Assembly: GCA_964555935.1 (NCBI GenBank)
Contig: CAZKUN010000013.1
Location: 4,539 to 68,538, forward strand
DNA length: 64,000 nucleotides
Reading direction: 5' to 3'
From: an uncultured Armatimonadia bacterium
GTDB taxonomy: Bacteria; Armatimonadota; Zipacnadia; Zipacnadales; VGFC01
Part shown: one piece after another, positions 8,927 through 46,382 of the stretch
Layout: the number at the start of each line of letters is the position of its first letter
Numbering within the stretch: the first letter of the stretch is position 1
Position numbers and translations under genes: made by a program
Notes under the pieces: model-generated
The model's database searches: none
The model's input: the letters and a program-made list of their open reading frames with translations, nothing else
Told to the model about the DNA's origin: nothing

Positions 8927-11080
8927 TCACGAGGCCTGCAGAACGGCGATGAGCCGCAACATGCGTTCGCGCAGTTCGCGCATGCGGCGGACGGTCAGTT
9001 CCGGAGCGGGAGTGTACTCCCAGATGTAGCGATCATCGAAGGGGCGGTCCGCGAAGCTATTCACGGGGGACATCCGGCGCGCCTCGGCGAGTAACGCTCG
9101 GGCCTCGGACGGGGCGGCGCCCGAGCGAGACCGGCATAGGCGCTCAAGCGTGCGGAGACAGCGGTAGTCCTCGACGCCCTCGCGTCGCCCCTCCCAGCCG
9201 ATCGTGCCTACGGGTCCCTGCTCCGAGGGTGCCATGTACCACTGACTCCAATCCTCGGGCACGGCCCATGTCCCGTCGGCGTCGCGGGTTAGGGGTTCGG
9301 TCGAGTAGTAGGCCCACTGGCCGAGGCCGCGCAGGCCCGCGCTCCACGTGTAGAAACCACATGCGTATCGGTCAAAGCGCGGGCTCTGGCCACGCTGGTT
9401 GCAGTCGTATCCCCACAGCTCCTTCCCCATCTCCTCTGCGCGGGCGACCGTCGCCTCATCCACGTCCGAGACGCCCGCGATCCACACATCGTAGAGTTCG
9501 CCCACATGCTCGACGCCGTACTGGCCTATGGCGGTGACGGTCCGAGCCTCGGGAACCTGTGAGTAGAGCCGGCCGAATGTCTCCCTCACTCCGGCAACGC
9601 GTTCTGCGTTGTTGGGCTCATCAGCCACGTAGAAGAGCAGAGGAGGCCACCCGAGAAGCTTCCGCCGCTGCAAGAGGTCCCGGACGGTGCCTGGGTCGCG
9701 GAATGCTCCCCAGCCCGGAATGCCCCCGCCGGCAGACAGCAGTATCAGCGGTCTGTCTGGAGCCACGAGCCCCGCGGCCTGTGCGAGCGCCAGCCGTTGC
9801 CGCAGGCCAAGGTAATGCCGAGCGTCGGAGGGCTCGTACTGCATGTCGAGGTCCAGCTCGACCCTAATGTCGCCGCCGCGCGTCTCGCGTTCGGGCGCGA
9901 CGTAGAGACTGACCGATGTCATCCCGTGCTCCGCCATGTCGCGGTAGTAGAGCCTCTGTAGTCGAGGTGATGCCATTGGCTCCGTCAGGTACACGTCGGC
10001 GTAATACATGAAAAACGACACATCGGCGGGATCGAGTTTCACGCGGGGCACGGTGACGGCGATGCTGATGGGGAATCGCCCGCGTTCAGTTTCCGCCTCC
10101 AACTCCAGTCGCAACTCCGGCAGTGACCAGTCCGGGGGCACGCGCACCCGCACGGCGTGCTGCAGGACGTCGCCCCGCTTCACGTCCTCGCGCGCGTGGC
10201 CCTGCTCGGACTCAGCAGGCGGCAGAAGCAGCAGAGGGTAGCGGATGTGTGCCTGGCTGTTGAGCTCGCGCTTGCTGTAACCGATGCGAAACAGCGCGAC
10301 GTCGTCGGCACGTAGCCCCGGGGGCAGGCCTTGGACGCGAAGACGCGCGCCCTCAATATCCCGCAGCGCGTGAAGCATCACCATGACGGTTTCGCGCTCG
10401 CCTGGCGGGCAAGTGGCTCTGATCTCCCCGTCGGGGGCGAGACACTCCTCGCGCAGGGGCATGTACCGCGCCGAGGTGCCCTGCTCCAGTGGGCGCGTGA
10501 ATGCGAGGAAGCCGAGGTCCGATTCGAGCGTCGTCGGGTCGACCGGCGGGTTAACGACGGGACTTACGTCGCCGATGCGAACGGAGTCATCCTGAACGAA
10601 AGTGATCCCGTCCCAGTGCGACTCCGGAGCGTACGACAGGAGCCCGATCTTAACGACGCTGTCAGTCTCCCGCGTCCGGAAGTCAAGCTTGAGTTCGGTC
10701 CATTCGGGGAACCTGGCCCAGCCCGTGGATGCGACACAGATGCCGTTGAGCACGGCGTCATACGCGACGAGCGAGTGGTGCCCGGCGGCCGGCGTGCGGA
10801 TCCAGGCTCGCGCGCGATAGCCCGTGTTGGGCTTTACCGTGATGGGCTGGTAGGCCAGGGCATACGCCGAGCCCTCCTCACGCTGCAGGCGCAGCCACCG
10901 GTCGCCGTCGGTCGCGTCATCTGTCTCCACCGTCGCCGTGACGTTCGTCGTGACGGCCCAGCCCTCGGGCAAACCATCGGCAACGGCCTCGAAGGACGGG
11001 TTGCTCGGAAGATTCGGCGCCCCCTGAGCGACGCCCGCTGACGCGCACAACCAAGCGGTCACGGCTATACAGGTAGTCAT
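8927..11080 (-). CDS. Secreted protein: N-terminal CBM4_9-like beta-sandwich plus TIM-barrel glycoside-hydrolase-like domain (DUF4091/GH123-like?)
   Basis: Signal peptide MTTCIAVTAWLCASAGVAQG. NPSFE...GWAV resembles CBM4_9 entry motifs. YVADEP and W/Y-rich C-terminal segments suggest a glycosidase-like barrel. There is a 4-bp ATGA overlap with the upstream gene (operon). Confidence 0.6.
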   Translation of the reverse strand: MTTCIAVTAWLCASAGVAQGAPNLPSNPSFEAVADGLPEGWAVTTNVTATVETDDATDGDRWLRLQREEGSAYALAYQPITVKPNTGYRARAWIRTPAAGHHSLVAYDAVLNGICVASTGWARFPEWTELKLDFRTRETDSVVKIGLLSYAPESHWDGITFVQDDSVRIGDVSPVVNPPVDPTTLESDLGFLAFTRPLEQGTSARYMPLREECLAPDGEIRATCPPGERETVMVMLHALRDIEGARLRVQGLPPGLRADDVALFRIGYSKRELNSQAHIRYPLLLLPPAESEQGHAREDVKRGDVLQHAVRVRVPPDWSLPELRLELEAETERGRFPISIAVTVPRVKLDPADVSFFMYYADVYLTEPMASPRLQRLYYRDMAEHGMTSVSLYVAPERETRGGDIRVELDLDMQYEPSDARHYLGLRQRLALAQAAGLVAPDRPLILLSAGGGIPGWGAFRDPGTVRDLLQRRKLLGWPPLLFYVADEPNNAERVAGVRETFGRLYSQVPEARTVTAIGQYGVEHVGELYDVWIAGVSDVDEATVARAEEMGKELWGYDCNQRGQSPRFDRYACGFYTWSAGLRGLGQWAYYSTEPLTRDADGTWAVPEDWSQWYMAPSEQGPVGTIGWEGRREGVEDYRCLRTLERLCRSRSGAAPSEARALLAEARRMSPVNSFADRPFDDRYIWEYTPAPELTVRRMRELRERMLRLIAVLQAS

Positions 11081-13896
11081 TTCGCAGCCGTCCAGTGGAT
11101 GGTGTTGGGCATCCGGAAGGTTGGGGCGCCTGGTATGGTTCGATGGGGGTGGTGCGTGTGCGCGGCGCCACGTCCGCCCTCGATGAGATCGAAGCCGGGA
11201 CGGTGTCGCAGAGCGATCGTCGCGCGTCCGTCAGGATTGGCTTGGACGCCGTCGACGGCCAGCGCATAGGTAGTTCCGTCTCCGAACTCGACAGTTACGC
11301 GTTCGTTGGGCAATCCCTCGCGCGCGGGAATCTGCGTATCCACAACAAGCGCGTCCTCATCGTCGCCCGCCTCGACGCAGAGCACGTCCACCACGTTCCC
11401 CTCCGCCGCCGGGGGAGCCGTGATGCTCTGGCCAGCCATCGCGACCTCCGTTCCGTCTACGAGGACCATCTCGGTGGGCTCGTCATCGACCACACGCGCG
11501 AAGGCGTAGCGTCCGGTCACTCGCAGGTCGATATTGGCAGCACCTACGCTGACATCCGGACCCGTGGTTAGGGCGTGGTAGTCAGTGAAGCCTTCGCCGC
11601 GGCAGACGATCCCGACGGCACCCGCTCCGTCGCCTTCGAGCGGCAAGCTCTCGACGCTGGTGAGCCTCGGCGCGTCCCGGAACGGCTCATGGACGGCGGC
11701 GAAGACGCTCTGTAGATCGGAGCCCTCTCGGCGCACGAGCAGCGCGGGCATCGTGTGGTCGAAGACCGCCGCGTTGCTCTCCTTGGCCCGGCGGATCGAC
11801 GGCAGCGCCGCAGTGTAGACCGTCGTGTCGGGCTGGCCCAATAGCGAGGTGTGGAGGCCGCGAGACGGATCGTCCGCATACCGGAACGTCGCCGACCACG
11901 CCTGCGCGCCGTCCCCGCGAGCCACGTCCTCGAACAGGCCATAGAGGGTGTTGACGCCGTCGACGACCGGGTTCCAGCTCTGGGCGATTGTATCCGTCCA
12001 CGGCCGCCGCGCCCAGCCCGGTGGGAGAAGACCCGCCGCATGGGGTTGCATCGGCAGACTGGCCTCCAGCGTCTGGTCGTAGTCGGCGCTGCCGTGGAGG
12101 CACCAGTCGTGCTTGTCCCCGCCCGTGACGCGGAAGACATCGACCACGTAGCCTCCTCCGCCGGGCAACGCCACGAGCGCGAGCGCTCTGCGGTACAGGG
12201 ATGCGATGTCGGGGTAGGCGCCCTCCGACGAGGCCTCGCAGAAACGCAGGAGATCGCCGCACCGTGCCCACGCCATGAGCGCGCCATCCGCGGGAGGGTC
12301 GTCGCCCGACGAGCGCTGATTGGCCTCATTCACGACCACCGAATTATGAGCAACCGTGCTGCATGCGAAGGGCCGCAATATCGTGTGCGTGTAGCCCAAG
12401 TCGGGCAGGAGTTGTCGGCCCGCTCCGAAGAGAAGCAGATCGAGAGCATCGGCATGTTGGTGTCCGTAGCCGCCTGAGAAGTGGAGGTTTGCTTGCACGC
12501 CGCTCTCGCCCGCGCCGACCCCGAGGATGGCATGCCCCATGGCCCACGCAAGTGCCGTGCCGACCGGCCCCTCGCGCGCCTCGGGGATGGGGCGACCGAG
12601 GTTGGCGGCGGGCCAGGCATCGTGGATGGGCGTGACCTCGCCGTCCGGCAACCGCATTCGGTTCAGCGCGGCGATCGACTCCTCGAGCATCGGGACATCA
12701 CTCGCGCCCGAGAATCTGTCGATGTGCAGACCGTCGATGGGGTTGACGTACCCCTCCGGGTCTGAGTAGCCCTTGAGCGGTCCTTCGACGCAGCTCTGCA
12801 GAGAGTAGACCGTTTGGGAGTGATACGATGGGGAGGCCTCGCGCCAGATGCCGTCCGGGTAGAACTGCCGCTCGAGGATCCCGTCCACGCGTCGCAGAGC
12901 GTCGTGGACGAACTCCGGCTCGCCGATGACCCGCCCGATCACCGCCAGCCCTCGTATGAGCGAGCCGTCCATGTTCCCCAGGTAGATCGGGAAGGTGCGC
13001 GTGAAGTTGGCGGTCGCCCGGTGGAATTCTTCAATGTTACGGCGGACATCGGTGCCCAGTTCATCTGAGAGAGCGTCAACCGCCTCGCTGTCGGCCACCC
13101 GGTCGTACGTGCGAGCGAGAGCGGGCGACATCTCCGAGTAGAACCAGTTGTCCAGGCCATCGCCGCGCAAGGTCGAGCAGTACGGGTATGGCGTGCTGTA
13201 TCCTGGGAGGTCTTTCGCCATGCCCGGCACGGGCTGCAATCCGTTGGGCGGTCTCGGCAGCGGCTGGGTGTCGAAGACCTTCATCGCGAACATCGACCAG
13301 TTCTCAATCCCATGCGGGCTGTAGTGCGGATACACCTCCGCCAGCCGGTTCAGGATGATCCCCGCCTGCCGCGCGTGCGGCTCGTCTCCCGTCGCGTGGT
13401 ATATCTTGGCCAGCGCGCCGGCCATGGACTCCATGTATCTCTTCTTGCAGTTCTCGACACGCATCTGCATGAAGTGCTTATAGCCGTCCTCGCCCTCCCA
13501 GTACCGGTAGACGTGCTCCTGTCCGGTGGAGTCGGTGACGCGCGTCTCCTTGTCCAGCGGGTACTCCTCGTTGGGGAAGACCATGTTGCAGAACTTGCAC
13601 TCGATCTGGTCCGGCTCCTCCGGCGACCAGAGCCAGTGGTAGGTATCCGAGACGTTGCCATCATCGCAGTTCGGGCAGAGGATGTGATAGAAGGTCGTTC
13701 GCGGAACGATGAACTCGTCGATCTGCTCGCGTCCGAGGGACATGACGTGCGTGGCCTGCTCTCGGAGCGAATCCACTTCGGCGTCAGTCAACTCCACCGG
13801 GAAGACGGGGTGTTTGACCGGATAGGCCATCGCGGAGGAACAGATCACCACGCTCATTAGGAGCGCCAGGCCACCGAGCATGTTCGCGTGGAGCAT
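11077..13896 (-). CDS. Heparinase II/III-like polysaccharide lyase (alpha/alpha toroid + beta-sandwich), secreted
   Basis: Signal peptide present. Hallmark GGYGHQHADALDLLLFGAGRQLLPDLGYTHT...HNSVVV matches the Hepar_II_III motif H.H.D......D.GY....HNS. There is an unusual N-terminal CxxC...CxxC insert. Confidence 0.8.
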   Translation of the reverse strand: MLHANMLGGLALLMSVVICSSAMAYPVKHPVFPVELTDAEVDSLREQATHVMSLGREQIDEFIVPRTTFYHILCPNCDDGNVSDTYHWLWSPEEPDQIECKFCNMVFPNEEYPLDKETRVTDSTGQEHVYRYWEGEDGYKHFMQMRVENCKKRYMESMAGALAKIYHATGDEPHARQAGIILNRLAEVYPHYSPHGIENWSMFAMKVFDTQPLPRPPNGLQPVPGMAKDLPGYSTPYPYCSTLRGDGLDNWFYSEMSPALARTYDRVADSEAVDALSDELGTDVRRNIEEFHRATANFTRTFPIYLGNMDGSLIRGLAVIGRVIGEPEFVHDALRRVDGILERQFYPDGIWREASPSYHSQTVYSLQSCVEGPLKGYSDPEGYVNPIDGLHIDRFSGASDVPMLEESIAALNRMRLPDGEVTPIHDAWPAANLGRPIPEAREGPVGTALAWAMGHAILGVGAGESGVQANLHFSGGYGHQHADALDLLLFGAGRQLLPDLGYTHTILRPFACSTVAHNSVVVNEANQRSSGDDPPADGALMAWARCGDLLRFCEASSEGAYPDIASLYRRALALVALPGGGGYVVDVFRVTGGDKHDWCLHGSADYDQTLEASLPMQPHAAGLLPPGWARRPWTDTIAQSWNPVVDGVNTLYGLFEDVARGDGAQAWSATFRYADDPSRGLHTSLLGQPDTTVYTAALPSIRRAKESNAAVFDHTMPALLVRREGSDLQSVFAAVHEPFRDAPRLTSVESLPLEGDGAGAVGIVCRGEGFTDYHALTTGPDVSVGAANIDLRVTGRYAFARVVDDEPTEMVLVDGTEVAMAGQSITAPPAAEGNVVDVLCVEAGDDEDALVVDTQIPAREGLPNERVTVEFGDGTTYALAVDGVQANPDGRATIALRHRPGFDLIEGGRGAAHTHHPHRTIPGAPTFRMPNTIHWTAAK

Positions 13897-17085: not shown

Positions 17086-18237
17086 ATGAGCATGTGGCAT
17101 TACTTCGACGACGCAGATCTAGCCGCAGTGAAGGAAGTGCTCGACCGAGGCGTTCTGGGGAGCATCGGTGACGCACCCGCGACACGGGGCTTGGAGGCGG
17201 CGTTCTGCGAGGAATTCGGCTCAGCCCACGCGCTTGGCGTCTGCAATGCGATGGCCGGGCTGCACTCAGCCGTCGCTGCGTCCGGAGCGGGAGCCGGCGA
17301 TGAAGTCGTTGTCGATTCGCTGGTGGGATTCGGCGCTTTGGCGGTGCTGTTCAACAACGCGATCCCTGTGTTTGCAGACGTCCGTCGCGACACTCACACG
17401 ATGGATGTCGAGTCGCTCCGCTCGCGGATCTCAGAGCGCACGAAGGCGATCATCGTCACCCAGCTCTGGGGCCTGATCGCCGACATGGACGAGATCATGG
17501 CGATCGCCAAGGAGCACGATCTCCTCGTCATCGAGGACTGCGCGCACGCGATCTACGCCACGTACAACGGCAAGTATGCGGGCACGATTGGCGACGTCGG
17601 CGTCTTCAGTTTCCAGGAGAGCAAGCAGCTCTCGACCGGCGATGGTGGGATCGTCCTGTTCCAGGACCCGGATGTCGGCGAACGGATCAATGATATGGTC
17701 ACCTTCGGCACGATGCCCTCGCGGGTGGCGCTGAACTACCGCATCACCGAGGTGATGTCGGCTATCGCTAAGGTGCAACTTGGGAAGACGCCCGGGTACG
17801 TCGATATCTGCGTCCGCTCCGCCAACCAGTTCAACGACGCCGTCGCGGGCAGCCCTTTGATCGCGCCCCAGATCACGCCCGAGGGCCGCGTGAACACCTA
17901 CCATCTGTGGGCGGCCACGTACGAGGGCGACGATCAGGGCCTGCCGTACGATGACTTCCAAAGAATCGCCGCCGAGCAGGGCGTCAACTTCATGTGGCGC
18001 TACATCCAGCAGGCGCCGTACCTGTTCGACGTCATCCGCGAGCCGGTTGCCTTCGGTCGCGGATGCCCGACCCAGTGCCCGCTGCGGGCGCGAGATATCA
18101 GCTACGATGAGGGCACGTGCCCGACGGCGGAGCTGATCATGGATCGGATAATGCTGGCCTACACGGGCGGCGACCCAGACGCCAACGCAGTGACCGCGGA
18201 CGGATTGCGCAAGGCGCTCGAGATCGCCCAAGGTTAG
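17086..18237 (+). CDS. DegT/DnrJ/EryC1/StrS-family PLP-dependent sugar aminotransferase (second paralogue)
   Basis: VIEDCAHAIYA and the PLP-lysine motif FSFQESKQLSTGDGG are present. The gene sits 6 bp after the previous gene, with a GGAGAG RBS. Confidence 0.9.
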   Translation: MSMWHYFDDADLAAVKEVLDRGVLGSIGDAPATRGLEAAFCEEFGSAHALGVCNAMAGLHSAVAASGAGAGDEVVVDSLVGFGALAVLFNNAIPVFADVRRDTHTMDVESLRSRISERTKAIIVTQLWGLIADMDEIMAIAKEHDLLVIEDCAHAIYATYNGKYAGTIGDVGVFSFQESKQLSTGDGGIVLFQDPDVGERINDMVTFGTMPSRVALNYRITEVMSAIAKVQLGKTPGYVDICVRSANQFNDAVAGSPLIAPQITPEGRVNTYHLWAATYEGDDQGLPYDDFQRIAAEQGVNFMWRYIQQAPYLFDVIREPVAFGRGCPTQCPLRARDISYDEGTCPTAELIMDRIMLAYTGGDPDANAVTADGLRKALEIAQG

Positions 18238-18288
18238 GATGCGTTGGGACCATTGTGCGCGACCTACCAGCCGCCTCGGAGGACCCAC

Positions 18289-20985
18289 ATGAAGCTCGTC
18301 TCGCTCATGCTCCTGCTGGCGATGCTCGCCGGCTCCGCGGCCTGCGACCAGTGGTGGCAGTACCGCAAGGACCGCCGCCTCTCCGGGCGTTCATCAGCGA
18401 CCGGCAACATCCAAACACCCGCGGTCAAGTGGTCCCACTCGATCGCCGCGCGCGAGACGCTGCTCGCCGCCGGGCTGGGCAAGGGCCCGAGGCAGATCGA
18501 TCTGCCTCTCGATGATCTCGCCACGTTCGATTCGACGATCGCCGACTGGGGCGTCGCGGGCAGATACCGCACCTCATGGCTCGACCTCGACGGCACTCGT
18601 AATCTCACGCCGGACTCCGCGCACTACAACCGCAAGATCGGCAAGGTGCTGCCCGATGCTCCGGGCTTGCAGATGATCGAGACCGAGCCCCTTGGCTACC
18701 CGAAGGTGCCCGGCGTGTACAAAGGTACCGTGCGGCTGAAGATCCGGCGCGATGGCGAGTGGGTCACGCATTGGGAGGTCGAAACCGACACGCTCATCTG
18801 GAGCTGCGAACCGATCTTTGGTGATTTCGATGGCGACGGGGCTAACGAGATTGCCCTGCTTCCCTGGTACCGGCTCATCATGCTCGATGCCGCCACGGGC
18901 GAGCTGAAAGAGCAGTGCAACTACCTCGCCGAGGACGGGAGCGAGATCCCTGGCCATGGCGGCCGCGCCTACGGTTGGTTCGGGGCCGTCGATCTCAATG
19001 GCGACGGTCAAACCGAGTTCGTCATCGTCGAGGACTTCATCCGTTACACCACTGTCATCGGCCGGCGAAACGGTAAGCTCGAGAGACTGTGGCTGAAGGT
19101 GTGGGAGCCGCCCGGAGAGGGCAGCGACACTCCGACAGACGACGAAACGGTCGTCGTGCGCCTCAACCCGGAGCCCTTGCAGGACATCGACGGCGACGGC
19201 GTGCCCGAGATCGTCGTCTCGATCTTCAACCAGACACAGGACAACCGCTGGCACATCACCGCGCTCGATCCGCTGACCGGCGAGACGAAGCTCGACCTGC
19301 CGGGGCAATTCCTCACCGGCTTGCGCGATGCGACGGGCGACGGCGCCCCCGAGCTGTTCTGCACGGCCGCCGGTCTCGGGCCACGCATTCCGGAGCCCAC
19401 GGGACTCTCCATCGTGACGTGCCTGTCCGGCGCCCCCGAGACGCTCTGGGAGATCGAGGGCTCGGCCTTCGTCACCCACCACACCGGGCACTACCCTCCC
19501 CACGTGAACTCCGGCGCAGCCCTGGGAGGGGAGACGATCTTGTGCGGGCCCGTCGCGCCGGATCAGCCGAGCGTCTTCTTCACCCGCGGAGCTGTAGCCG
19601 ACGCTGCGGGCGAGACCGAGGTCACTTGCTGGCAGGCGAGCCCGTCTGGCCGCTTCCGGCGCGCGGCTCGGTGGACTGGGCCCAACCTTGAGCCTCTGAT
19701 GACGCGTGCCGACGATGCCGACTCGATCCTGTTGAGGGCAAGCGCCTTCGAGGGCGAGTCCGCGCGCGTCCGCTGCCCCGGCCGGGGCGCCGACACGACC
19801 GCAGTGGCCTCTAAACGCGTCCCGGCGCCGACCAGTCCGGTGGTAGTCGGGCGCGTGGATGCGGACTCGCCGCCGACGCTCGTCGTTCAGGGCGCGAACG
19901 AGACGGTCGACGCGTTCCGCCCGAGCGGCGAATCGACCGAGCGTCTCTGGCGCGTGCCCGGACGAGGCATGACGTGCAACAACTACTTCGAGGGCCTTCT
20001 CCTGGCCGATCTGACGGGTGATGGCACGCCGTCCGTCGTCGCCGGGCGTCGGGGCGAGGGCGACTGCGCGCGGCTGGCCGTGCTGTCTCTCGACACGGGC
20101 CAGGAGGTCTGGCACCACGATTTCCCGGATTTCCCAGGTGCGCCGCCGCCATGGAACGTCCCTGGGTTGATGTACTGGCAAGGCGGCCATTTCCGCGACA
20201 CCGAGCGGATGGATCTGCTCGTCCAGATGCGCCGGGTCTGGGGGGAGAGCACGCTGTTTGACGGCCGAACGGGCGAGCCCGTCTGGAAGCAGACCAAGGG
20301 CAGGCCGGGCAGGGGCTTCGGTCGTTGGTGGATGTCGATGTACGACTTCGATGGCGATGGGCTTGAGGACATCCTCAACATCTATCCGGACATGTTCTGC
20401 GTGGCGCGCGGCACCGACGGCGAGCTGCTGGTCGCCGAGGAGGTCGCGAAGTACGTCGACGAGTACGCCTACTACGCCGACTGCATTGTGGCTGACTTCC
20501 TGGACCGGGGCACTCCCCAGATTCTCTACTGCCACGAGTTCGTCACCGCGCTGCTCGACGGCAACGGTGACCGCATCTGGAAGGTCGCCCACGTTCACCC
20601 GATGGGCTGGCGCAACCAGGCCGCCCACGGCGATGTGGACGGCGACGGGAAGACCGAGTTGCTCTTCCCTGGGGCCATGGGTGAGGATGGCAGGGAATTC
20701 CGGTGCCTCGACGCGGCCACGGGCGAGGTGCGGTGGAGTTTCCCGATGCCTGACGAGGCGATCAGCTTCCCCGCCGTGGCCGACATGAACGGCGACGGGC
20801 GCGACGAGTGCGTCTTCACGATGGGGAGCACGATTCATGCCGTCGGCAATGGCGAGGTGCTGTGGACGCTCGACTTGCCCGGACGCCTTGGCCCGGTCGC
20901 GATTGCCGAGGTCGATGACAGCGGGGCGGCCCAGATTGTGGTGGCGTGCGCCGACGGACACGTGTACGGGATTGGCCCGGAGTGA
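18289..20985 (+). CDS. Secreted/lipoprotein-like FG-GAP/VCBS repeat beta-propeller protein
   Basis: Signal peptide MKLVSLMLLLAMLAGSAAC. At least eight Ca-binding DxDGDG repeats (DFDGDGANE, DLNGDGQTE, DIDGDGVPE, DVDGDGKTE, DMNGDGRDE...) are typical of integrin-alpha/FG-GAP propellers. Confidence 0.8.
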   Translation: MKLVSLMLLLAMLAGSAACDQWWQYRKDRRLSGRSSATGNIQTPAVKWSHSIAARETLLAAGLGKGPRQIDLPLDDLATFDSTIADWGVAGRYRTSWLDLDGTRNLTPDSAHYNRKIGKVLPDAPGLQMIETEPLGYPKVPGVYKGTVRLKIRRDGEWVTHWEVETDTLIWSCEPIFGDFDGDGANEIALLPWYRLIMLDAATGELKEQCNYLAEDGSEIPGHGGRAYGWFGAVDLNGDGQTEFVIVEDFIRYTTVIGRRNGKLERLWLKVWEPPGEGSDTPTDDETVVVRLNPEPLQDIDGDGVPEIVVSIFNQTQDNRWHITALDPLTGETKLDLPGQFLTGLRDATGDGAPELFCTAAGLGPRIPEPTGLSIVTCLSGAPETLWEIEGSAFVTHHTGHYPPHVNSGAALGGETILCGPVAPDQPSVFFTRGAVADAAGETEVTCWQASPSGRFRRAARWTGPNLEPLMTRADDADSILLRASAFEGESARVRCPGRGADTTAVASKRVPAPTSPVVVGRVDADSPPTLVVQGANETVDAFRPSGESTERLWRVPGRGMTCNNYFEGLLLADLTGDGTPSVVAGRRGEGDCARLAVLSLDTGQEVWHHDFPDFPGAPPPWNVPGLMYWQGGHFRDTERMDLLVQMRRVWGESTLFDGRTGEPVWKQTKGRPGRGFGRWWMSMYDFDGDGLEDILNIYPDMFCVARGTDGELLVAEEVAKYVDEYAYYADCIVADFLDRGTPQILYCHEFVTALLDGNGDRIWKVAHVHPMGWRNQAAHGDVDGDGKTELLFPGAMGEDGREFRCLDAATGEVRWSFPMPDEAISFPAVADMNGDGRDECVFTMGSTIHAVGNGEVLWTLDLPGRLGPVAIAEVDDSGAAQIVVACADGHVYGIGPE

Positions 20986-21054: not shown

Positions 21055-22491
21055 CTAGCGTCTCGACCATCGCCGGTAAACGTCCTGCGCCTCACGGAAG
21101 AGGTCCTGCACTTCGCGTTGGTGAGCGGCCGTCCGGTACTTGCCCTTCGTCGCGGTCCATTCGAGCGCTTCGTCGAGCTTGCGGACGAACGCCGTTGCCG
21201 CCGGGCCCGCGCTCGCGTTTGGCCTCCCGCACTTGACGTACAACGGACTCGTGTGGGCGAAGAGCGGCTGGTGGAAGCTGTCGCGGACGTTGCTGGCCAG
21301 CCGCGCGGCAAGCCACCCGTCCTCGGGAATCTCAATCTCCACCGACAACTCCCCCGCACGCGTATCCATCCGATGGTCATGCACCACGCGCCCGTTCCGG
21401 ATGATTTGCACGGTGTCGACGGAGTAGAACGAATGCCACGACACCGTCACGTGGGCCGTTGATCCAGGCTCAAGCTCGAGCGTATCGCCGGGACGCTGCC
21501 CGTTGGCCTCCATGAACAGCGCCGGACCATTGGTCACGAACGTCCGCCCCTCGCTCAAGCCCCGGTACCACGCGTCTGGCTCAAAGTCCCCGGCCGTATC
21601 GACGTACACGCGATTTGCCGAGCAGACGAACCAATCCGAGCCGGTTGATGCGGGCAACGTGATGCCACAGTTCAGCATGTCATACCAGAGATCGTATTCG
21701 GGATCCTGCCAGAACGGATCGAACAGGTTGATCGCGTCGAGTTTCCCCAGCGCCGCGGCGACCGGGGCCTCCATCCCGCGACCGTTGTGACACCAGATCA
21801 CGAGGCCGCCTTGCGCGCGGGCTTCATCACACGCGAGAGATAGCGGCGGGTAATCCGGGTCGGTTTCATCGACGAGGAAGCCACGACTGATAGGCTCGAC
21901 GATGTCCTTGATTCTTAGGAACATCACGTGCCCGTATCCGTGCTCGATGCTGTCGGCGCTGTCGTTATGCCGGCATTCCTCGCCGCATTCGACGTAGTGA
22001 TGATCTGTCGAGAAATCGGTCAGGAACCCCGGCGAGTACTTGTTGCTGGCGTACGGCAAATCCCACCGCGTCAGCACGCTGATCGCGGTGACGCGCAGAT
22101 CCTCAACGCGTGGGTCCAGCCGAAGTCGTTCGTCCGGGCGCTGCTCGTTGTGGTCGTAGTGGATGTGCGTGTTGCCGGGGTGCCAGCCTTGTTCGCCGAG
22201 CGTGGTCCAGCGCGTGAGGGGGATATCGACCGCCATCGTCCCGGCCGTTGTGGCCTCGACGGTCATCGAGTAGGGCTCGTACTCCGTGCCGCGCTCGACA
22301 ACAACCCGCGTTCGCCCGCACCCGACGTCGACGGCAAAGCTGCCGTCGCTGTAGAAGAACGGACGTCCCGGACCAACCTTGAGAATCGCATCCTTGGGGT
22401 GGGCGAAGTGCCCGCTGGAGGTGAGGACCTCGACGCGCGCCTCGACCGGATGCCCGGTCGAGGCGTCAGTGATTCTGCCGGTGAGCTTCAT
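21055..22491 (-). CDS. Hypothetical metal-dependent hydrolase with N-terminal carboxypeptidase-regulatory-like beta-sandwich (CehA/McbA- or PHP-like, putative)
   Basis: The N-terminus KLTGRITDASTGHPVEARVEV resembles CarbopepD_reg. His-rich motifs GNTHIHYDH and HGYGHV are present. The protein is 478 aa. Confidence 0.5.
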   Translation of the reverse strand: MKLTGRITDASTGHPVEARVEVLTSSGHFAHPKDAILKVGPGRPFFYSDGSFAVDVGCGRTRVVVERGTEYEPYSMTVEATTAGTMAVDIPLTRWTTLGEQGWHPGNTHIHYDHNEQRPDERLRLDPRVEDLRVTAISVLTRWDLPYASNKYSPGFLTDFSTDHHYVECGEECRHNDSADSIEHGYGHVMFLRIKDIVEPISRGFLVDETDPDYPPLSLACDEARAQGGLVIWCHNGRGMEAPVAAALGKLDAINLFDPFWQDPEYDLWYDMLNCGITLPASTGSDWFVCSANRVYVDTAGDFEPDAWYRGLSEGRTFVTNGPALFMEANGQRPGDTLELEPGSTAHVTVSWHSFYSVDTVQIIRNGRVVHDHRMDTRAGELSVEIEIPEDGWLAARLASNVRDSFHQPLFAHTSPLYVKCGRPNASAGPAATAFVRKLDEALEWTATKGKYRTAAHQREVQDLFREAQDVYRRWSRR

Positions 22492-22560: not shown

Positions 22561-23598
22561 CTAGGCGTAGAATCCGCTGTCGCGCTTGCAGGCCTGGGTC
22601 ACCCGGACGACCTCAACGGCCTCTGCCGGCTTGACGATCAGCGCTTTGCGCTCGCGCAGGTGGGCCCAGACATTGTCGTAGAAGTCGCCGATGTTGTCGC
22701 CGACCGACGGGACCTCTTCGCTCTGCCACGGGATGACGTCGTCGTTCCCGTAAGCGCGCCCCGGTGGCGGCTCCTCGACGACCTCGAGCTTCGCGAGCTT
22801 CTTGGGATCGAACGATTCGATCGTGCTCGTCCGCCCGTCCGAGACCAGCGTCCCCTCGGACCCTAGCACGGTCCACAAGGGCTCGGGGAACTTGCAGGCG
22901 CTTGAGACTTCCATGTCGAACACCCGCCCGTTCTCCGCGCGCAGCAGAACCTTCACGTGGTCCTCGACATCCCCGATTCCGCTGATCAGCCGCAGGTCGC
23001 AGAAGACGTCCTTCACGGTCGAGCCCAGCATCTGCAGCCCCGCGTCGATGTAGTGAGGGCAGGTGTTGTTGAGCACGCCGCCGTGGTGGCTGCGCATCGT
23101 CTGCCAATCGTTCCGGCGGCTGAACCCAAACGACCGCATCCGGATCTCAAAAACATCTCCGATCCGCTTCTCGCGGATGACCTTCAGGATGTGCTGGATG
23201 CAGGGGTTGTAGCGGTTATTGTGGTGAACGAGGAGCTTCTTCTTTGCCTTCTTCGCGGCGGCGACCATGCTGTTTGCCATCGAGACGCTATCGGCGATGG
23301 GTTTCTCGCAGATCGCGTGCCGTCCGCTGCGGAGCACATCCTTCGTGATCGGCCCGTGCGTGTCTGAGTAGCTCGCGACGACCACAACATCCGCGTCGGC
23401 GCCCTTCAGCAGCGCCTGGTGATCATCAAAGCACTCGCAGCCCAACTCCTCCGCGACCTCCGCGCGTCGCTCGGGCAGCCAGTCGGTGACGGCGGTGACT
23501 TGGTAGCGCTTGTCATCGCGCACGCGTTTGACGTGGATGTTGTAGCCCGAACGCCCGAGTCCGACGATACCCAACTTGATCGGCTTCTTGCTTGCCAT
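22561..23598 (-). CDS. Gfo/Idh/MocA-family oxidoreductase
   Basis: IKLGIVGLGRSG Rossmann motif, EKP motif, 345 aa. Confidence 0.85.
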   Translation of the reverse strand: MASKKPIKLGIVGLGRSGYNIHVKRVRDDKRYQVTAVTDWLPERRAEVAEELGCECFDDHQALLKGADADVVVVASYSDTHGPITKDVLRSGRHAICEKPIADSVSMANSMVAAAKKAKKKLLVHHNNRYNPCIQHILKVIREKRIGDVFEIRMRSFGFSRRNDWQTMRSHHGGVLNNTCPHYIDAGLQMLGSTVKDVFCDLRLISGIGDVEDHVKVLLRAENGRVFDMEVSSACKFPEPLWTVLGSEGTLVSDGRTSTIESFDPKKLAKLEVVEEPPPGRAYGNDDVIPWQSEEVPSVGDNIGDFYDNVWAHLRERKALIVKPAEAVEVVRVTQACKRDSGFYA

Positions 23599-23619
23599 TT
23601 GCGGCCTCCCGAAGGCGCG

Positions 23620-24360
23620 TTACGGCGAGTGTTCGTTCACATATTCCAGCGCGTCGCGTAGATACTGCAGCGTGTTCTCGCGGTCTTGCACTTCCATCTC
23701 GACCACGACATCCCCTGGGTAGCCATCCTCTGCCAGCCTCGCCAGCAACCCAGGCAGATCGATCTCACCCGTTCCGAACGGCACTGATTGCCGCCCGACT
23801 TGGTCCTTGATGTGCACCAGCTCGAATCGCCGGTCTAACGCCTCACAAGCCTCGCGCCAGTCAATGCCCACTGAGTGGAACTGCCCGACCTCGAGCGTGC
23901 ACTTCAGCCGCGCGTCATCGACGGTCGACAGGATTCTGTCGTAATCCTCAAGCGTCTCGATTGCCGAGCCCGCGTGGTTCTGCAGGACGGGGATCACGGG
24001 CAGGCCATCGATCTCGTCGAGCAGCGCCTTAACCGCCGGCGCGTCTCGATCCAGGTCCGTCGGCTTCACGAGCGCGGCTCGCACACCTAGCTCCGCGCCC
24101 AACCGGCACGTCTTCGCCGCGTTGGCGATTGATGTCTCGTGGTCCTCGGTAATTGGGGGAAGATGTATCGATGAGAAGTCGATGCCGTACTTGTCGGTGA
24201 AGCCGAGATACGCGTCCGGATCCGCATCAGCAGACAGCGCCGACTTGCACCAACTCGTGAACGCCTCAAAGCGCGTGTAGCCAATCTGCGCGTAGGCTGA
24301 GAGCACCTCGGCGAGGCTCATCTCGGGGTTGGAGCACGGGCTAACGGCGAACGAAAGCAT
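23620..24360 (-). CDS. Sugar phosphate isomerase/epimerase (xylose-isomerase-like TIM barrel, AP_endonuc_2 fold)
   Basis: Conserved acidic/His positions (HLPP, E...HIKD, VVEME) are typical of the family. The internal ATG at 24360 (MLSFAVSP) is preferred over 24432. Confidence 0.75.
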   Translation of the reverse strand: MLSFAVSPCSNPEMSLAEVLSAYAQIGYTRFEAFTSWCKSALSADADPDAYLGFTDKYGIDFSSIHLPPITEDHETSIANAAKTCRLGAELGVRAALVKPTDLDRDAPAVKALLDEIDGLPVIPVLQNHAGSAIETLEDYDRILSTVDDARLKCTLEVGQFHSVGIDWREACEALDRRFELVHIKDQVGRQSVPFGTGEIDLPGLLARLAEDGYPGDVVVEMEVQDRENTLQYLRDALEYVNEHSP

Positions 24361-24447
24361 GGCGTCTCTCCCGGCGTGGCGGTTCGCCCGGCGACGGTGA
24401 TTACCTGCACGCTGCCCCCGTGGCGCAGGCATTCTTGCCTGCGGCCG

Positions 24448-26028
24448 CTACTCCGGCTTGAACATCTGGAAATCGCCGCTGCCAACATCTAGGTCGGCAT
24501 ACTTATCAAGCCGGAACGTATGCCAGTAGCACGCCCAGCGCGCGTCGGCCTCCAACACGGCGCCCAGGCGGCGAATTATCGCTCGTTTCGCGTCCCCACG
24601 CCCGGGGTCGCTTGATAGGTCGCGATACGTCGCGTCCGCGAGATCGTACAGCTCGTCGCGGTCAGACGTGAGGTTGTAGGTGTACATGTACTTGGTCCCG
24701 TCGACCTCCGCGAAGGTCGAGACCGCCGGGTTCGGCGCGACATGCCAGCCGCACTCGAAGAGGATCGGGTCGCGCTCCGGAATCGCTTCGCCGCGGATGT
24801 GCGGCAGCAGTGATTCACCATCGAGACGCTCCGCCGGAGCGATGCCGGCGGCCTCGAACACTGTCGGCGCGATGTCGAGCAGCGAGACCATCTCGTCAAC
24901 CGTCCGTCCCGCGCCCCTCTCCCTGGGGAGCTTCACGCTCAGCGGCACCATCGCCACCTTTGGGTGGCCGTAGACACCCTTGTCGACCAACGCCCGCTCG
25001 CAGTTCATCTCGCCATGATCGCCCGTGAGGACGATGAGGGATTCATCGTAGATGCCGCGCTCGTCGAGCGCGTTCAGGAAGCGCCCTATCGCGGCGTCGA
25101 GCGCCTCGATCTGCACGAAGTTCATCAGCATGTACTGGCGCGCGGTCGCCTCGTCATACATCCCCCAGTTGCGCAGGTACACGTCATACACGCGCGGCCA
25201 GTCCTGCCCCTTGAGCGCCGCGTGGTAGCTCGCCGGCAACTGGATGTGTTCGGCCAGCTCCCGCGCCCGCTCGGCGTAGCACCCCGGCACCAGGAACGGC
25301 TGGTGTGGCGCGAAATAGTCGAGTTGGAGATACACGGGGTCGCCGGCTGATTGCCCGAGCGCGCTATCGAGCGTCTCAGTCGCCAGCCTCGAGAGGTACT
25401 GACTGTACGTTCCCTCCTCGGGGAACTCGCGTCCATCGGATTGCGCGATCCAGCCGCCGCAGTTGTTGCCGGGCGTCTGGCGATCCGGGCGCAGGCCCTT
25501 GATGGGATTAGGCCACGTCGGCGGGGTGACGCCCAAGTCGCGGAGGTACCGGTGGTAGCCGTCGTCATCAGCCAGCGGCGGCGCCCAACGGTTCCAGGGC
25601 GAGTCGCTCTCGCCGAACGCGTCCATGAACTTGGCGGCCCCGACGTGGCACTTGCCGACATGTTTCGTGGTGTAGCCGGTGGCTCTTAGGTACTCCGGGA
25701 AGATGGCATCCGAATCCCGCAGGCCCACTTCCCAGCCGTCGTGCGCGCGCTCCTCGTTCGCCGTGAGGTAGGGGTACCGCCCGGTGAGGTATCCGGCTCG
25801 CGATGGGCCGCACAGTGGCGAGCAACTGAACGCGTTGCTGAATCGCGTTCCGTCGGCCATGATCCGGTCGATGTTCGGCGTGCGCAGGTGCTCGCGAATT
25901 GGGGCGGCAGGATCGTAGCTCTCGCGTGGAATCATGTCCACGCTGATGAAGAACACGTTCGGCCCGGTTCGGCCATCATGCTCGAATGGATGGGCTCCGG
26001 TGCGCTCGTTCAGGTAGCGTTGTCTCAT
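24448..26028 (-). CDS. Cys-type (formylglycine) sulfatase, no signal peptide
   Basis: The canonical signature CGPSRAGYLTG is present. Alkaline-phosphatase-like core motifs are found (NVFFISVD, GKCHVG, LTGDHGE). The start is assigned to the internal ATG at 26028. Confidence 0.85.
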   Translation of the reverse strand: MRQRYLNERTGAHPFEHDGRTGPNVFFISVDMIPRESYDPAAPIREHLRTPNIDRIMADGTRFSNAFSCSPLCGPSRAGYLTGRYPYLTANEERAHDGWEVGLRDSDAIFPEYLRATGYTTKHVGKCHVGAAKFMDAFGESDSPWNRWAPPLADDDGYHRYLRDLGVTPPTWPNPIKGLRPDRQTPGNNCGGWIAQSDGREFPEEGTYSQYLSRLATETLDSALGQSAGDPVYLQLDYFAPHQPFLVPGCYAERARELAEHIQLPASYHAALKGQDWPRVYDVYLRNWGMYDEATARQYMLMNFVQIEALDAAIGRFLNALDERGIYDESLIVLTGDHGEMNCERALVDKGVYGHPKVAMVPLSVKLPRERGAGRTVDEMVSLLDIAPTVFEAAGIAPAERLDGESLLPHIRGEAIPERDPILFECGWHVAPNPAVSTFAEVDGTKYMYTYNLTSDRDELYDLADATYRDLSSDPGRGDAKRAIIRRLGAVLEADARWACYWHTFRLDKYADLDVGSGDFQMFKPE

Positions 26029-26247
26029 GTGGTGCTCCGCGCCGACATCGGGCTCCTGGGGGTGTCTACGTAGAAAGTTGGCGCAAATGGAGTGGCCGCG
26101 TCGACTATATGTGTAGGGAAGCCTGGCATTTGGGCTTTCGCCCAATTACGAAACTCCCCTTTACATAGGATCAATCACCCCCACCAAACCGAATCAACGA
26201 ACAGGGAACCCGCAGGTTGGGTCGCCCGCGCTACCGAACGTCCCGCC

Positions 26248-30728: not shown

Positions 30729-31523
30729 ATGTCCACATTGACCACGTGCCTGATGTTGGCGCTCGCGCTGACCGCGCAGTCGATCGGGCAGCCTCCGGGA
30801 CCCGAGCAATGGGAGCCTCTGCCGGAACTCACCGATGAGTTCGATGGCGACGAGCTGGACGTGACGAAATGGCATGACCACAACCCGGGCTGGAAGGGCC
30901 GACAGCCAGCGTTCTTCGCCCCCGAGAACGTGACGGTCAGCGACGGGAGCATGCATGTTGCGGCCAAACGGGAGGACCGCGAAGGGCTTCCCGAGGGGTA
31001 TCACACATTCACGACGGGCGCGGTGCAGAGCACGGTGCTCGTGAAGTACGGGTATTTCGAGGTGCGGTGCAAGGCCGGACATTCGCGGGCGTCGGCGGCG
31101 TTCTGGTTCTATGAGAACACGCCGCACATGTGGACGGAGATCGATGTCTTCGAGATCGGCGCGGGCGCGCCGGATCACGCGAAGAAGATGCACATGAACG
31201 TGCACGTGTTCCACACGCCGGTTGAGAAGAAGCACTGGGCCAAGGCGGGCGTCCACGAACATGCGGAGAACCTGTCTGAGGACTACCACGCGTATGGGCT
31301 GAAGTGGACGCCGAAGGCGATCGTGTTCTACTTCGACGGCGAGGAAGTTGGGCGTCGTGAGAACACGCACTGGCACCAGGCGCTGACGATGAACTTCGAT
31401 TGCGAGACGATGCCGACGTGGTTCGGACTGCCGGATGAGGCCAACCTTCCGGCGGCGTTCAGCACGGACTACGTTCGGGCGTGGAGGCTGGCGGGGGCGA
31501 CGGAGGTGCGGACGAGGGAGTAG
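30729..31523 (+). CDS. Glycoside hydrolase family 16 (secreted)
   Basis: Signal peptide present. The catalytic ExDxxE motif is WTEIDVFE. Size (264 aa) and beta-jellyroll W/F pattern fit GH16. Confidence 0.85.
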   Translation: MSTLTTCLMLALALTAQSIGQPPGPEQWEPLPELTDEFDGDELDVTKWHDHNPGWKGRQPAFFAPENVTVSDGSMHVAAKREDREGLPEGYHTFTTGAVQSTVLVKYGYFEVRCKAGHSRASAAFWFYENTPHMWTEIDVFEIGAGAPDHAKKMHMNVHVFHTPVEKKHWAKAGVHEHAENLSEDYHAYGLKWTPKAIVFYFDGEEVGRRENTHWHQALTMNFDCETMPTWFGLPDEANLPAAFSTDYVRAWRLAGATEVRTRE

Positions 31524-31545
31524 GGGTGGGTGGACGGCGACGGCC

Positions 31546-31585
31546 GACGGGCTGGAAGCCCGTCGCTACGCGACGGCGGACGGCG
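31546..31585 (+). repeat. Copy of dispersed hairpin repeat (gacgggctggaagcccgtcgctacgcgacggcggacggcgg)
   Basis: Same architecture as 27977..28025 (hairpin + tcgctacgcg tail). It lies in the GH16-GRE intergenic region, upstream of the reassigned GRE start. Confidence 0.75.
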
Positions 31586-31603
31586 GTGAAGGCGAGGGAA
31601 GAG

Positions 31604-33757
31604 ATGGCGACAGTCGATACTGATTTGCGCGTGCGGACGGAAGCTACAGAGCGGGTCGGCAGGCTTCGAGAGGGAGCCTTGGAGAACCCGCCCGCGAACT
31701 GGCAGGCGGCGCTTCATGGCACGGAGTCGATGATGGCCTCCGTGGGGGAGACGTGGTGGGTCGCGCGGCGCGGCCGGCGGGTGGCGGACATCCTCCGGAA
31801 CATGGAGCCCGAGATCGGCCCGGATGACCCCATCGTGGGCCGGACGCCGGCCCGGCCGCCCACTGAGGCGGAGTCAGAGCGGCTGGCCAAGGCGCACGCG
31901 TTCAACCAGACGCAACCGGCGGCGGGCGGGCAGTCGGGTCACATGTCGCCGGATTTCGACACGCTGCTTGCGCTCGGGTGCCGGGGCGTGCAGGCGCGGA
32001 TCGACGCGATTGTGGGCGGGCTCGCCCCGTCCGACCCGGAGGCGACGGAGCGGCTGGCGTTCTACCGAGGCGCGCGCGAGGCGCTGGATGGCCTGTGCGA
32101 CTTCGCGGCGCGCCATGCTGATGAAGCGGAGCGGCTGGCGGCGGAGGCGGATGGCGCTCGCGCCGACGAGTTGCGGGAGATCGCGGCCGTCTGCCGGCGC
32201 GTGCCCGCGCAACCGGCCGAGACGTTCCACGAGGCGCTGCAAGCCGCGCACTTCCTGATCTACGCGCTGAACATGGCGGACGGAACCGGCCTCTCATCGC
32301 CCGGCAGCGTGGATCGCTGGGCCGCCTCGCATCTGCAGGCTGATCTAGAGTCGGGACGCATCACGCGCGAGCGGGCGCAAGAACTGCTGGATTGCTTCTT
32401 CCTGACATTCAACGCGTACATCGGCAAGGGCCTGGCGATTGGCCTGCTGATCGGTGGACGCGACGCCGACGGCGAGGACGTCAGCAACGAGCTGACGTGG
32501 ATGGTGCTGCACGCGATCGACCACACGCGGCTGAGCTACCCCGGCGCGGGCTTGCGCGTTCACGCCGGCACCGATCCCGGGCTGATCGACCTCTCGCTCG
32601 AGATCCTGGCTGAGGGCACGAGCCACCCGGCGCTGTTCAATGACGAGGTCATCACGGCGTCGCTACGGCAAATGGGCCTGCCACCGGAGGACGCCTGTGA
32701 CTACATGAACTCGACGTGTGTTGAGATCACGCCGTCGGGGAAGAGCAACGTCTGGGTCGCGAGCCCGTACTACAATCTCCCGCAGGTGCTGCTCGATATT
32801 GTCGGTGATGTCGCGTGCGGAGTAGTTGGTGAGCCGGGCACGCTGGACGAGATCATCGAGGAGTTCTCCGGCAGGTTGGCTGAGCAAATATCGTCGGGCG
32901 TCGCCGAGCAGAACCGCTTGAGGCACTCGTGCATGGCGCACCGCAACTTCCCGCTGGCGTCGTGCTTTGTCAGCGATTGCATCGAGCGCGGCCTCGACAT
33001 CGACCAAGGCGGCGCGCGCTACAACTGGGTCGAGTGCAGCTTCGTCGGGCTGGCGACGGCGGCTGATAGCCTGGAGGCGGTGCGAGAGTTCGTCATTGGC
33101 GGCGCGCTGACGTGGGCCGAACTGCGCGCCATGATGGAGGCGAACTTCGAGGGACATGAGGCCTGGCGACAGAGGCTCCTGAACGAGCCGGCGAAGTATG
33201 GGAATGGCGAGGCTGGGGTGGATGGGATCGCAGCGAGGTTGATGGAGGTCGCGGTGGGCCACTGTCGCAGACACCGCGTGGTGCTGGGTGGGACGTACGA
33301 GCCAGGGCTTTTTGCGTGGATCATGCACGGGGAATTGGGTAAGGACACGGGCGCGACGCCCGACGGTCGGACGGCAGGCGAGTGCCTCAGCCCTGGCCCG
33401 GACCCGATGCCCGGACGAGCGACGAATGGTCCCACGGCGGCGACGTTGTCGGTAACGAGCTTCGACCACCAGCCGCTGATCGGCGGCGTGGCGTTCAACC
33501 TGAAGTTCTCGCCCGCGACACTGGCCAAACCCGAGCAACGCAAGAAGCTGGCGGCGCTCGTGCAGACCTACTTCGACCGGGGCGGCTTCCAGACACAGGT
33601 CAACGCTGTATCCGCCGAGACGCTTCGCGACGCTCGCGAGAACCCGGAGCAGCACGCGGATCTCTTGGTGCGCGTGGCGGGGTACTCGGACTACTTCGTC
33701 AACATGACGCCGCTCATGCAAGATGAGTTGATCGGGAGGACGGAGTCGGAGTTGTAG
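31604..33757 (+). CDS. Glycyl radical enzyme (PFL-like superfamily, 1,2-eliminase/dehydratase-type)
   Basis: C-terminal glycyl-radical motif VRVAGYSDYFVNMTP. Cys loop NSTCVEITPSG with the Cys-Val-Glu typical of non-PFL GREs. 717 aa from the ATG at 31604. The upstream part of track ORF 31481 is a repeat element. Confidence 0.85.
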   Translation: MATVDTDLRVRTEATERVGRLREGALENPPANWQAALHGTESMMASVGETWWVARRGRRVADILRNMEPEIGPDDPIVGRTPARPPTEAESERLAKAHAFNQTQPAAGGQSGHMSPDFDTLLALGCRGVQARIDAIVGGLAPSDPEATERLAFYRGAREALDGLCDFAARHADEAERLAAEADGARADELREIAAVCRRVPAQPAETFHEALQAAHFLIYALNMADGTGLSSPGSVDRWAASHLQADLESGRITRERAQELLDCFFLTFNAYIGKGLAIGLLIGGRDADGEDVSNELTWMVLHAIDHTRLSYPGAGLRVHAGTDPGLIDLSLEILAEGTSHPALFNDEVITASLRQMGLPPEDACDYMNSTCVEITPSGKSNVWVASPYYNLPQVLLDIVGDVACGVVGEPGTLDEIIEEFSGRLAEQISSGVAEQNRLRHSCMAHRNFPLASCFVSDCIERGLDIDQGGARYNWVECSFVGLATAADSLEAVREFVIGGALTWAELRAMMEANFEGHEAWRQRLLNEPAKYGNGEAGVDGIAARLMEVAVGHCRRHRVVLGGTYEPGLFAWIMHGELGKDTGATPDGRTAGECLSPGPDPMPGRATNGPTAATLSVTSFDHQPLIGGVAFNLKFSPATLAKPEQRKKLAALVQTYFDRGGFQTQVNAVSAETLRDARENPEQHADLLVRVAGYSDYFVNMTPLMQDELIGRTESEL

Positions 33758-39728: not shown

Positions 39729-39949
39729 GGTGGTCCTCTCAGTGTGATGGTGGCATTATGCCACTGCACACATATTCACTGGCGATTAATCGCTTTTACA
39801 GGGTTAATTAGTGAAATATATGTTGACATGGCCAGTCGCTGCGAGTAGTATTATACAAGTAGCGCATATTCTGTCAATAAATATTACTAAGTTGGATCTG
39901 TGAGCGTCAGGACGGGCGGACAGGTCCACGGGCCAGAGCGAGGGCGCGC
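39729..39949. promoter_or_regulatory. AT-rich intergenic island with sigma70-like promoter (TTGACA 39823..39828, 17-bp spacer, TAGTAT 39846..39851) and 12-bp perfect palindrome GCGATTAATCGC (39782..39793)
   Basis: Read directly. GC is far lower than the surrounding ~67% GC context. The island separates divergent genes 39045..39728(-) and 39950..(+). Confidence 0.55.
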
Positions 39950-46361: not shown

Positions 46362-46382
46362 ACCCGAGGAGGACCCGATAAC

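Follow-up and report, generated by a model that had tools for sequence, protein, structure and literature searches.

A lineage-specific gene cluster for a sulfatase, a TIM-barrel protein and a Gfo/Idh/MocA oxidoreductase amid sugar-degradation genes of an Armatimonadota bacterium

Here, we report on a gene cluster from an uncultured Armatimonadia bacterium, which lies in a stretch of 64,000 nucleotides (hereafter the window; G+C content 65%; contig CAZKUN010000013.1 of assembly GCA_964555935.1, positions 4,539 to 68,538) and combines genes for a sulfatase, a xylose-isomerase-like triose-phosphate isomerase (TIM) barrel protein and a Gfo/Idh/MocA oxidoreductase (Gfo345). Our explanation, tentative and held with a rough probability of 0.45, is that these genes, together with a fourth one for a metallohydrolase, make up a lineage-specific cytoplasmic operon that would finish the breakdown of small sulfated sugars within a glycan-degradation island. 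All three genes are genuine and lie within an Armatimonadota island of sugar-degradation genes; overall, they belong to an ordinary, uncharacterised sugar-processing cluster and not to a demonstrated new pathway. The cluster is laid out as follows (lengths in amino acids, aa).

24448-26028, minus strand: S1 sulfatase gene (526 aa; PF00884)
23620-24360, minus strand: xylose-isomerase-like TIM barrel gene (246 aa; PF01261)
22561-23598, minus strand: Gfo/Idh/MocA oxidoreductase gene, Gfo345 (345 aa; PF01408, PF22725, PF02894)
21055-22491, minus strand: CehA/McbA-type (PHP-like) metallohydrolase gene (478 aa; NCBIfam NF038032)
26029-26247: intergenic region that separates the divergently oriented genes for the sulfatase and a secreted 620-aa protein, presumed to hold the operon promoter

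A preliminary description of this DNA saw three co-directional minus-strand genes with short gaps, and this is confirmed by the open reading frames as well as by independent gene calls on identical public contigs (L008 and L010, from the FUCH17-1/FUCH22-1 metagenomes), which recover all three proteins, spaced by 87 bp (sulfatase to TIM barrel) and 21 bp (TIM barrel to Gfo345). With the metallohydrolase gene, which follows Gfo345 after 69 bp and was not part of that description, the cluster comprises at least four genes. Homologues and the independent gene calls place the start of the TIM gene at 24360 (MLSFAV), while its longest open reading frame reaches 24432, and a GGAG motif is found 7-10 nt ahead of the sulfatase ATG. 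In scans that are uninformative for this phylum, terminator-like sites between the cluster genes were not detected and the one sigma-70-type promoter-like site fell inside the sulfatase gene; likewise, when all of the window was searched for riboswitches as clues to a ligand, no Rfam family matched.

The domain assignments made earlier for the three proteins are correct, with Pfam matches above cut-offs for the sulfatase (PF00884, 104.6 bits, cut-off 25), the TIM barrel (PF01261, 70.8 bits, cut-off 31.1) and Gfo345 (PF01408, PF22725 and PF02894 at 95.7, 70.5 and 54.2 bits). The metallohydrolase has no Pfam match and no solved relative by sequence, and is recognised by NCBIfam model NF038032 (E-value 4e-51, 174 bits, cut-off 80). 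None of the four products carries an N-terminal hydrophobic segment (maximum Kyte-Doolittle value over 15 residues ≤0.8), therefore the label 'leaderless' holds for the sulfatase, and all four are taken as cytoplasmic proteins. Its classification as a Cys-type enzyme likewise stands, the formylglycine motif C73-G-P-S-R77 being invariant among 45 orthologues (window protein included), as are the metal and catalytic residues D31, K126, H128, D337, H338 and K350. In Gfo345, the GxGxxG and EKP motifs are intact, with G13/G15/G18, K99 and P100 invariant and E98 nearly so. The closest homologues of the cluster proteins are up to 60-79% identical, and the TIM barrel is 100% identical to a protein from an NCBI 'Armatimonadota bacterium' metagenome-assembled genome.

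The TIM barrel and a dedicated Gfo/Idh/MocA protein form a real, conserved module in which the latter is a nearly obligatory partner. Among 59 non-redundant loci of the TIM subfamily besides the window, gathered by a scan of one genome per species and by contig look-ups, 46 have a Gfo/Idh/MocA gene of one ~330-aa family directly downstream of the TIM gene, often overlapping its stop codon, and 7 more have the same canonical ~330-aa Gfo no further than 4 kb away (53/59 together; L065 and L149/L150 are further cases of the pair). A small cupin (~130 aa) precedes the pair in 25 of these loci (e.g. L006, L007, L020, L025, L026), and in 8 loci UPF0261 (Tm-1-like) and PEP-hydrolase-like genes are found with it. 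In cultured Paenibacillus (e.g. P. thalictri, L001/L022), the pair is part of operons for sugar ABC transporters that also encode a two-component regulator (histidine kinase/AraC) and, in one case, a DUF2961 protein; in P. allorhizosphaerae the order reads DUF2961, UPF0261, PEP_hydrolase, cupin, TIM, Gfo, Gfo and solute-binding protein. Lentisphaerae/Victivallis and some other genomes (L051, L052, L053, L056 and L063, at ~10000-13500 in each) show a more elaborate block of TIM, divergent Gfo, a second PF01261 TIM (265 aa) and canonical Gfo.

Against this background, the window stands out. Directly downstream of its TIM gene there is no canonical ~330-aa Gfo but one of a different lineage, which phmmer did not relate to the canonical partner at an E-value ≤1e-3. 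So while the pairing of dehydrogenase and TIM barrel, which the preliminary description named as the core of known oxidative glycoside pathways, is a real unit, the dehydrogenase next to the TIM gene in the window is not the one this TIM family is usually paired with. Only one relative (L004) has a window-type Gfo after the TIM gene, and here the TIM barrel, Gfo and sulfatase are 69%, 79% and 70% identical to those of the window and encoded co-directionally. L004 and the window differ in their flanking genes. Their ABC-F proteins are 69% identical, therefore the two organisms are moderately distant relatives. Since sulfatase, TIM barrel and Gfo345 have been kept together at ~70% identity, their association has outlived substantial divergence. 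In a neighbour-joining tree, the window and L004 are sisters next to relatives that retain the canonical Gfo; therefore, the original partner was displaced in their common ancestor.

As for how such an operon may have arisen and worked, we envisage that in the ancestor of this genome and L004 the canonical partner was swapped for the 345-aa Gfo/Idh/MocA protein and a stand-alone cytoplasmic S1 sulfatase arrived upstream, with the PHP-type metallohydrolase gained downstream later on in this genome. Co-transcribed, the genes would act on imported small sulfated sugars, freed by the secreted enzymes of the surrounding island. The sulfatase may first cleave the sulfate ester inside the cell, after which Gfo345 could interconvert a ring hydroxyl and keto group with NAD(P), C3 being our best guess; the TIM barrel may then carry out a metal-dependent rearrangement of the keto-sugar, be it epimerisation, isomerisation, hydration/dehydration or elimination. 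The data cannot choose between eliminase, hydratase and epimerase for the TIM barrel, nor between oxidase and 3-keto reductase for Gfo345.

Gfo345 is modelled with a mean predicted local distance difference test score (pLDDT) of 93.8. Its nearest characterised structural relatives appear to comprise C3-dehydrogenases of sugars (a group that includes DgpA, WlbA and GenD2) along with reductases of keto-sugars or cyclitols, with inositol 2-dehydrogenases (27.4-29.5) and AL3 (26.0) farther off. This tips the balance toward a redox reaction at a ring carbon of the sugar, for instance C3, the regiochemistry not being settled by it. The AlphaFold2 model of the TIM barrel (pLDDT 96.9) has eight beta/alpha units, and across 52 family members 36 columns are invariant; conserved residues include H66, H129, E157, H162, H183, D186 and E221, of which H183 and E221 align with residues of UlaE that we take to be its metal ligands.

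Several observations weigh against an operon dedicated to sulfated sugars. It contains no transporter gene, and neither a formylglycine-generating enzyme nor an anaerobic sulfatase-maturing enzyme was found when the 39 open reading frames of the window were scanned against Pfam. The metallohydrolase gene was not found in L004 or in any other locus anchored on the TIM barrel, the sulfatase or the Gfo, and thus has been seen in this genome only. Any sulfatase at all lies within 6 kb of the TIM gene in only 7 of the 59 loci, and with Planctomycetota and Lentisphaerae genomes being rich in sulfatases, this is no more than background. Conversely, in 80 metagenome loci with orthologues of the sulfatase (44-70% identity) the TIM family is never present, and no neighbour recurs save scattered Gfo-like or TonB-type genes. 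Three loci hold orthologues of Gfo345 (70-77% identity), which sit beside other Gfo genes, heparinase-like genes and an aldolase or aminotransferase, and none has the TIM family adjacent. Finally, the TIM barrel can be assigned to no reaction type. The sulfatase link is limited to one narrow lineage, and even in L004 two extra genes (DUF169 and URO-D/MtaA-like) are inserted between sulfatase and TIM barrel. Beyond this lineage the three genes do not stay together, an outcome that the preliminary description had named as refuting it and that has largely come about. The earlier interpretation is supported in part, for the domain assignments and the pairing of dehydrogenase and TIM barrel but not for a conserved link to the sulfatase.

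Most of these points would also suit a scenario, somewhat less likely in our eyes, in which sulfatase, TIM/Gfo pair and metallohydrolase are independent cytoplasmic enzymes with different substrates, whose shared orientation in a gene-dense glycan island is a coincidence. All three families are multi-copy in such genomes, the 64-kb window itself encodes one more sulfatase and one more Gfo, and so adjacency of three such common families is not in itself improbable. What speaks against chance is that the three orthologues are still co-directional, with short gaps, in the ~70%-identity relative with its different flanks, and that the gaps of 21-87 bp in the window are free of terminator-like sites. 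To our minds, the operon reading is the likelier account. The sulfatase orthologues constitute a conserved, uncharacterised family of leaderless ~530-aa S1 sulfatases that has no fixed genomic partner. One candidate for a direct link, a 593-aa protein (P0222) from a JGI contig of 19946 bp that looked like a Rosetta-stone fusion of sulfatase and TIM barrel, was rejected: its sulfatase part is 64% identical to that of the window, yet it carries merely a C-terminal fragment of a different PF01261 type and short segments are repeated at both junctions, so it is probably a rearranged, mis-assembled, chimeric or truncated gene call and not a functional fusion.

A more specific model was put forward in the preliminary description, namely that Gfo345 oxidises the desulfated glycoside at C3 for beta-elimination by the TIM barrel, in the manner of LgdA/LgdB, DgpA/DgpBC, AL3/AL1 or AtOGE. 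It gains from the conserved pairing of Gfo and TIM barrel as well as from the Lentisphaerae TIM-Gfo-TIM-Gfo block, whose composition resembles that of an oxidative glycoside pathway from Alistipes with two TIM barrels and two Gfo proteins. The TIM barrel itself, however, shows no special closeness to eliminases. A profile of its family matches UlaE (2e-9), IolE, TM0416, MJ1311, YcjR and IolI, with no eliminase at an E-value ≤1, and structural comparison places the enzymes that cleave 3-keto-glycosides and C-glycosides further down (C-glycoside deglycosidases 23.4-24.3, DgpC 22.6-24.0, CarB2 23.2, AL1 22.4, AtOGE 16.5). Neither sequence nor structure thus brings it nearer to the LgdB/CarB/DgpC/AL1/AtOGE-type eliminases and C-glycoside deglycosidases than to epimerases, isomerases, dehydratases or other PF01261 subfamilies. 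Gfo345, for its part, scores far below the NCBIfam cut-offs for levoglucosan dehydrogenase (LgdA) and for BT_2158 and BT_2159 (29 and 50 bits vs 750 and 650), and the intergenic gaps (87, 21 and 69 bp) are too short to hold a small DgpB/CarC-type subunit gene, an objection that concerns the heteromeric members only. Taken together, we regard beta-elimination along these lines as quite unlikely.

Nor does the TIM barrel approach any curated NCBIfam equivalog: it scores 38 bits for inosose dehydratase IolE (TIGR04379, cut-off 290), 22 bits for hydroxypyruvate isomerase (TIGR03234, cut-off 353) and 28 bits for L-ribulose-5-phosphate 3-epimerase (PRK13209, cut-off 317). Grouping with bona fide inosose or hydroxypyruvate isomerases, which was named as one of the outcomes that would undo the preliminary description, did not occur. 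Instead, the TIM barrel represents a separate, widespread and uncharacterised PF01261 subfamily, neither a bona fide inosose/hydroxypyruvate isomerase nor an identifiable eliminase, whose members occur in Planctomycetota, Lentisphaerota, Armatimonadota and cultured Paenibacillus species; more than 300 clusters of ~250-aa homologues exist. A bolder thought, and a long shot, is that this subfamily and its dedicated Gfo (often with the small cupin) are an undescribed, widespread cytoplasmic sugar-conversion module which here became rewired with another dehydrogenase and a cytoplasmic sulfatase. The outcome would be a hitherto unknown intracellular route in which loss of the sulfate from a sulfated glycoside is followed by oxidation at C3 and then by cleavage or rearrangement, with no glycoside hydrolase taking part.

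Cyclitol catabolism, with Gfo345 as inositol dehydrogenase, the TIM barrel as inosose dehydratase/isomerase and the sulfatase either unrelated or acting on a sulfated cyclitol, is highly improbable: IolG (103 bits) is among the best NCBIfam matches of Gfo345, IolE (38 bits) is the best for the TIM barrel and some homologues bear JGI labels such as 'scyllo-inositol 2-dehydrogenase' and 'inosose dehydratase', yet both scores are far under the curated cut-offs (355 and 290 bits) and the other typical inositol-catabolic families were matched by none of the 39 window open reading frames in Pfam scans.

The top NCBIfam model for Gfo345 is UDP-GlcNAc 3-dehydrogenase (107 bits vs a cut-off of 450). 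A role as nucleotide-sugar 3-dehydrogenase feeding the DegT aminotransferase at 17086-18237 was considered and dismissed as the main reading, as two unrelated genes separate the DegT gene, which is on the opposite strand, from the operon, and the latter starts with the sulfatase. Orthologues of Gfo345 often adjoin a second Gfo-family gene of 341-347 aa (L146, 8001-10591; L147, 6895-9038; L148, 1-1520), for which in two cases only the N-terminal NAD-binding domain model was matched; the two may represent a recurrent two-dehydrogenase pair.

Turning to the surroundings, Pfam scans of the 39 open reading frames identified, around the operon, GH123-like, heparinase II/III-like, GH141-like, GH16 and GH95 proteins and a chondroitinase-B-like beta-helix protein; the second sulfatase, the second Gfo, an esterase and a glycyl radical enzyme are also encoded. 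Three further features deserve their coordinates.

18244-20985, plus strand: FG-GAP/beta-propeller protein
53703-57662, plus strand: FG-GAP/beta-propeller protein with a lambda-carrageenase propeller domain (PF25292, 69 bits, cut-off 26.8)
31481-33757, plus strand: glycyl radical enzyme (PFL-like and Gly_radical domains), between the GH16 gene and the second sulfatase

The propellers, GH16, two sulfatases and the chondroitinase-B-like protein hint that the island is directed at a highly sulfated galactan or a comparable polymer. Within it, a cytoplasmic operon would plausibly serve as a finishing step for imported fragments.

Other observations on the window stand apart from these arguments. 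Its glycyl radical enzyme scores 406 bits against NCBIfam PFL2-3 (cut-off 678) and far below the cut-offs for the sulfopropanediol and hydroxyproline dehydratase equivalogs; a radical-SAM activase was not among the window open reading frames scanned, and a similar glycyl radical enzyme lies near the TIM-Gfo pair in L005 (12463-14559). Homologues of URO-D/MtaA-CmuA-like methyltransferases recur, in the window (62343-63437, minus strand) beside GH95, in L004 (6079-7961), in L148 (13538-14524) and near sulfatase orthologues in three metagenome loci (L099, L102, L111); such proteins may act in sugar O-demethylation. Glycan biosynthesis and degradation genes are interleaved, with DegT/DnrJ/EryC1 sugar aminotransferases at 349-1638 and 17086-18237 (both plus strand) and seven glycosyltransferase genes in 39045-47555. 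GC skew is about zero up to ~26 kb and then positive (0.03-0.19) to the end of the window, a change that coincides with the divergent region 26029-26247 and a run of mostly plus-strand genes and may be mere coding-strand bias.

How does the cluster compare with what is known? The sulfatase shares fold family and catalytic motif with S1 sulfatases of marine polysaccharide breakdown (e.g. PDB 6pt4), and carrageenase-like propellers, GH16 and another sulfatase are encoded in its surroundings. Its nearest solved relatives are distant, though, namely the exo-2S-iota-carrageenan sulfatase 6pt4 (E-value 1e-30) and 4upl/Ruegeria-type sulfatases, and unlike polysaccharide sulfatases, which are mostly exported, it is leaderless and predicted to be cytoplasmic, with orthologues in highly varied genomic contexts. 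As for the other two proteins, E. coli YcjS/YcjR/YcjQ (glucoside 3-dehydrogenase and 3-keto-glucoside 4-epimerase) is only marginally similar (18% identity) and a YcjQ-type second dehydrogenase is absent. C-glycoside deglycosylation by DgpA/DgpB-C and CarA/CarB-C is among the closest known systems, with the difference that the gaps of the operon offer no room for a DgpB/CarC-type gene.

The 3-keto-glucoside operon of Agrobacterium tumefaciens comprises the eliminase AtOGE, the hydratase AtHYD and a Gfo 3-keto-glucose reductase, and 3-keto-glycoside beta-eliminases use a Mn2+ site with a catalytic His on the 3-keto-glycoside (PMC10628242). In Bacteroides thetaiotaomicron, the 3-keto-disaccharide cluster BT2156-BT2160 resembles the window in joining Gfo-like dehydrogenases to an IolE-like TIM barrel (PMC8121099), and sulfated thioglycosides (glucosinolates) are among its substrates too, according to work that PMC8121099 cites. 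It differs in being periplasmic (Tat/Sec signals) and in having a DUF1080 hydrolase, a gene for which is missing from the window operon. Across the known pairs, the TIM partner can be an eliminase, hydratase or epimerase and the Gfo an oxidase or 3-keto reductase (PMC10628242, PMC8121099). Such pairs (AtHYD with its Gfo reductase; BT2156-BT2159) perform the type of chemistry that we propose for the window.

A system of sulfatase, Gfo and TIM barrel, or any sulfatase-coupled keto-sugar pathway, was not found described in the literature, which leaves room for the sulfatase-coupled oxidative reading but lends it no support. Should the three enzymes indeed act in sequence, an oxidative route through keto-sugars would for a first time be seen to receive its substrate from a cytoplasmic sulfatase, and this would add to the non-hydrolytic pathways of glycan breakdown that have recently emerged, albeit with a sulfatase link that is lineage-specific and not to be generalised. 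For the TIM subfamily at large, cultured Paenibacillus with their TIM-Gfo pair offer a tractable way to its substrate. Compared with known systems, then, nothing here falls outside known kinds: these phyla are rich in S1 sulfatases, Gfo/Idh/MocA proteins and PF01261 barrels, and modules of Gfo and TIM barrel are an established theme. What is new lies at the level of families, namely a delimited TIM subfamily with a near-obligatory Gfo, the replacement of this partner in the present lineage and a family of leaderless sulfatases.

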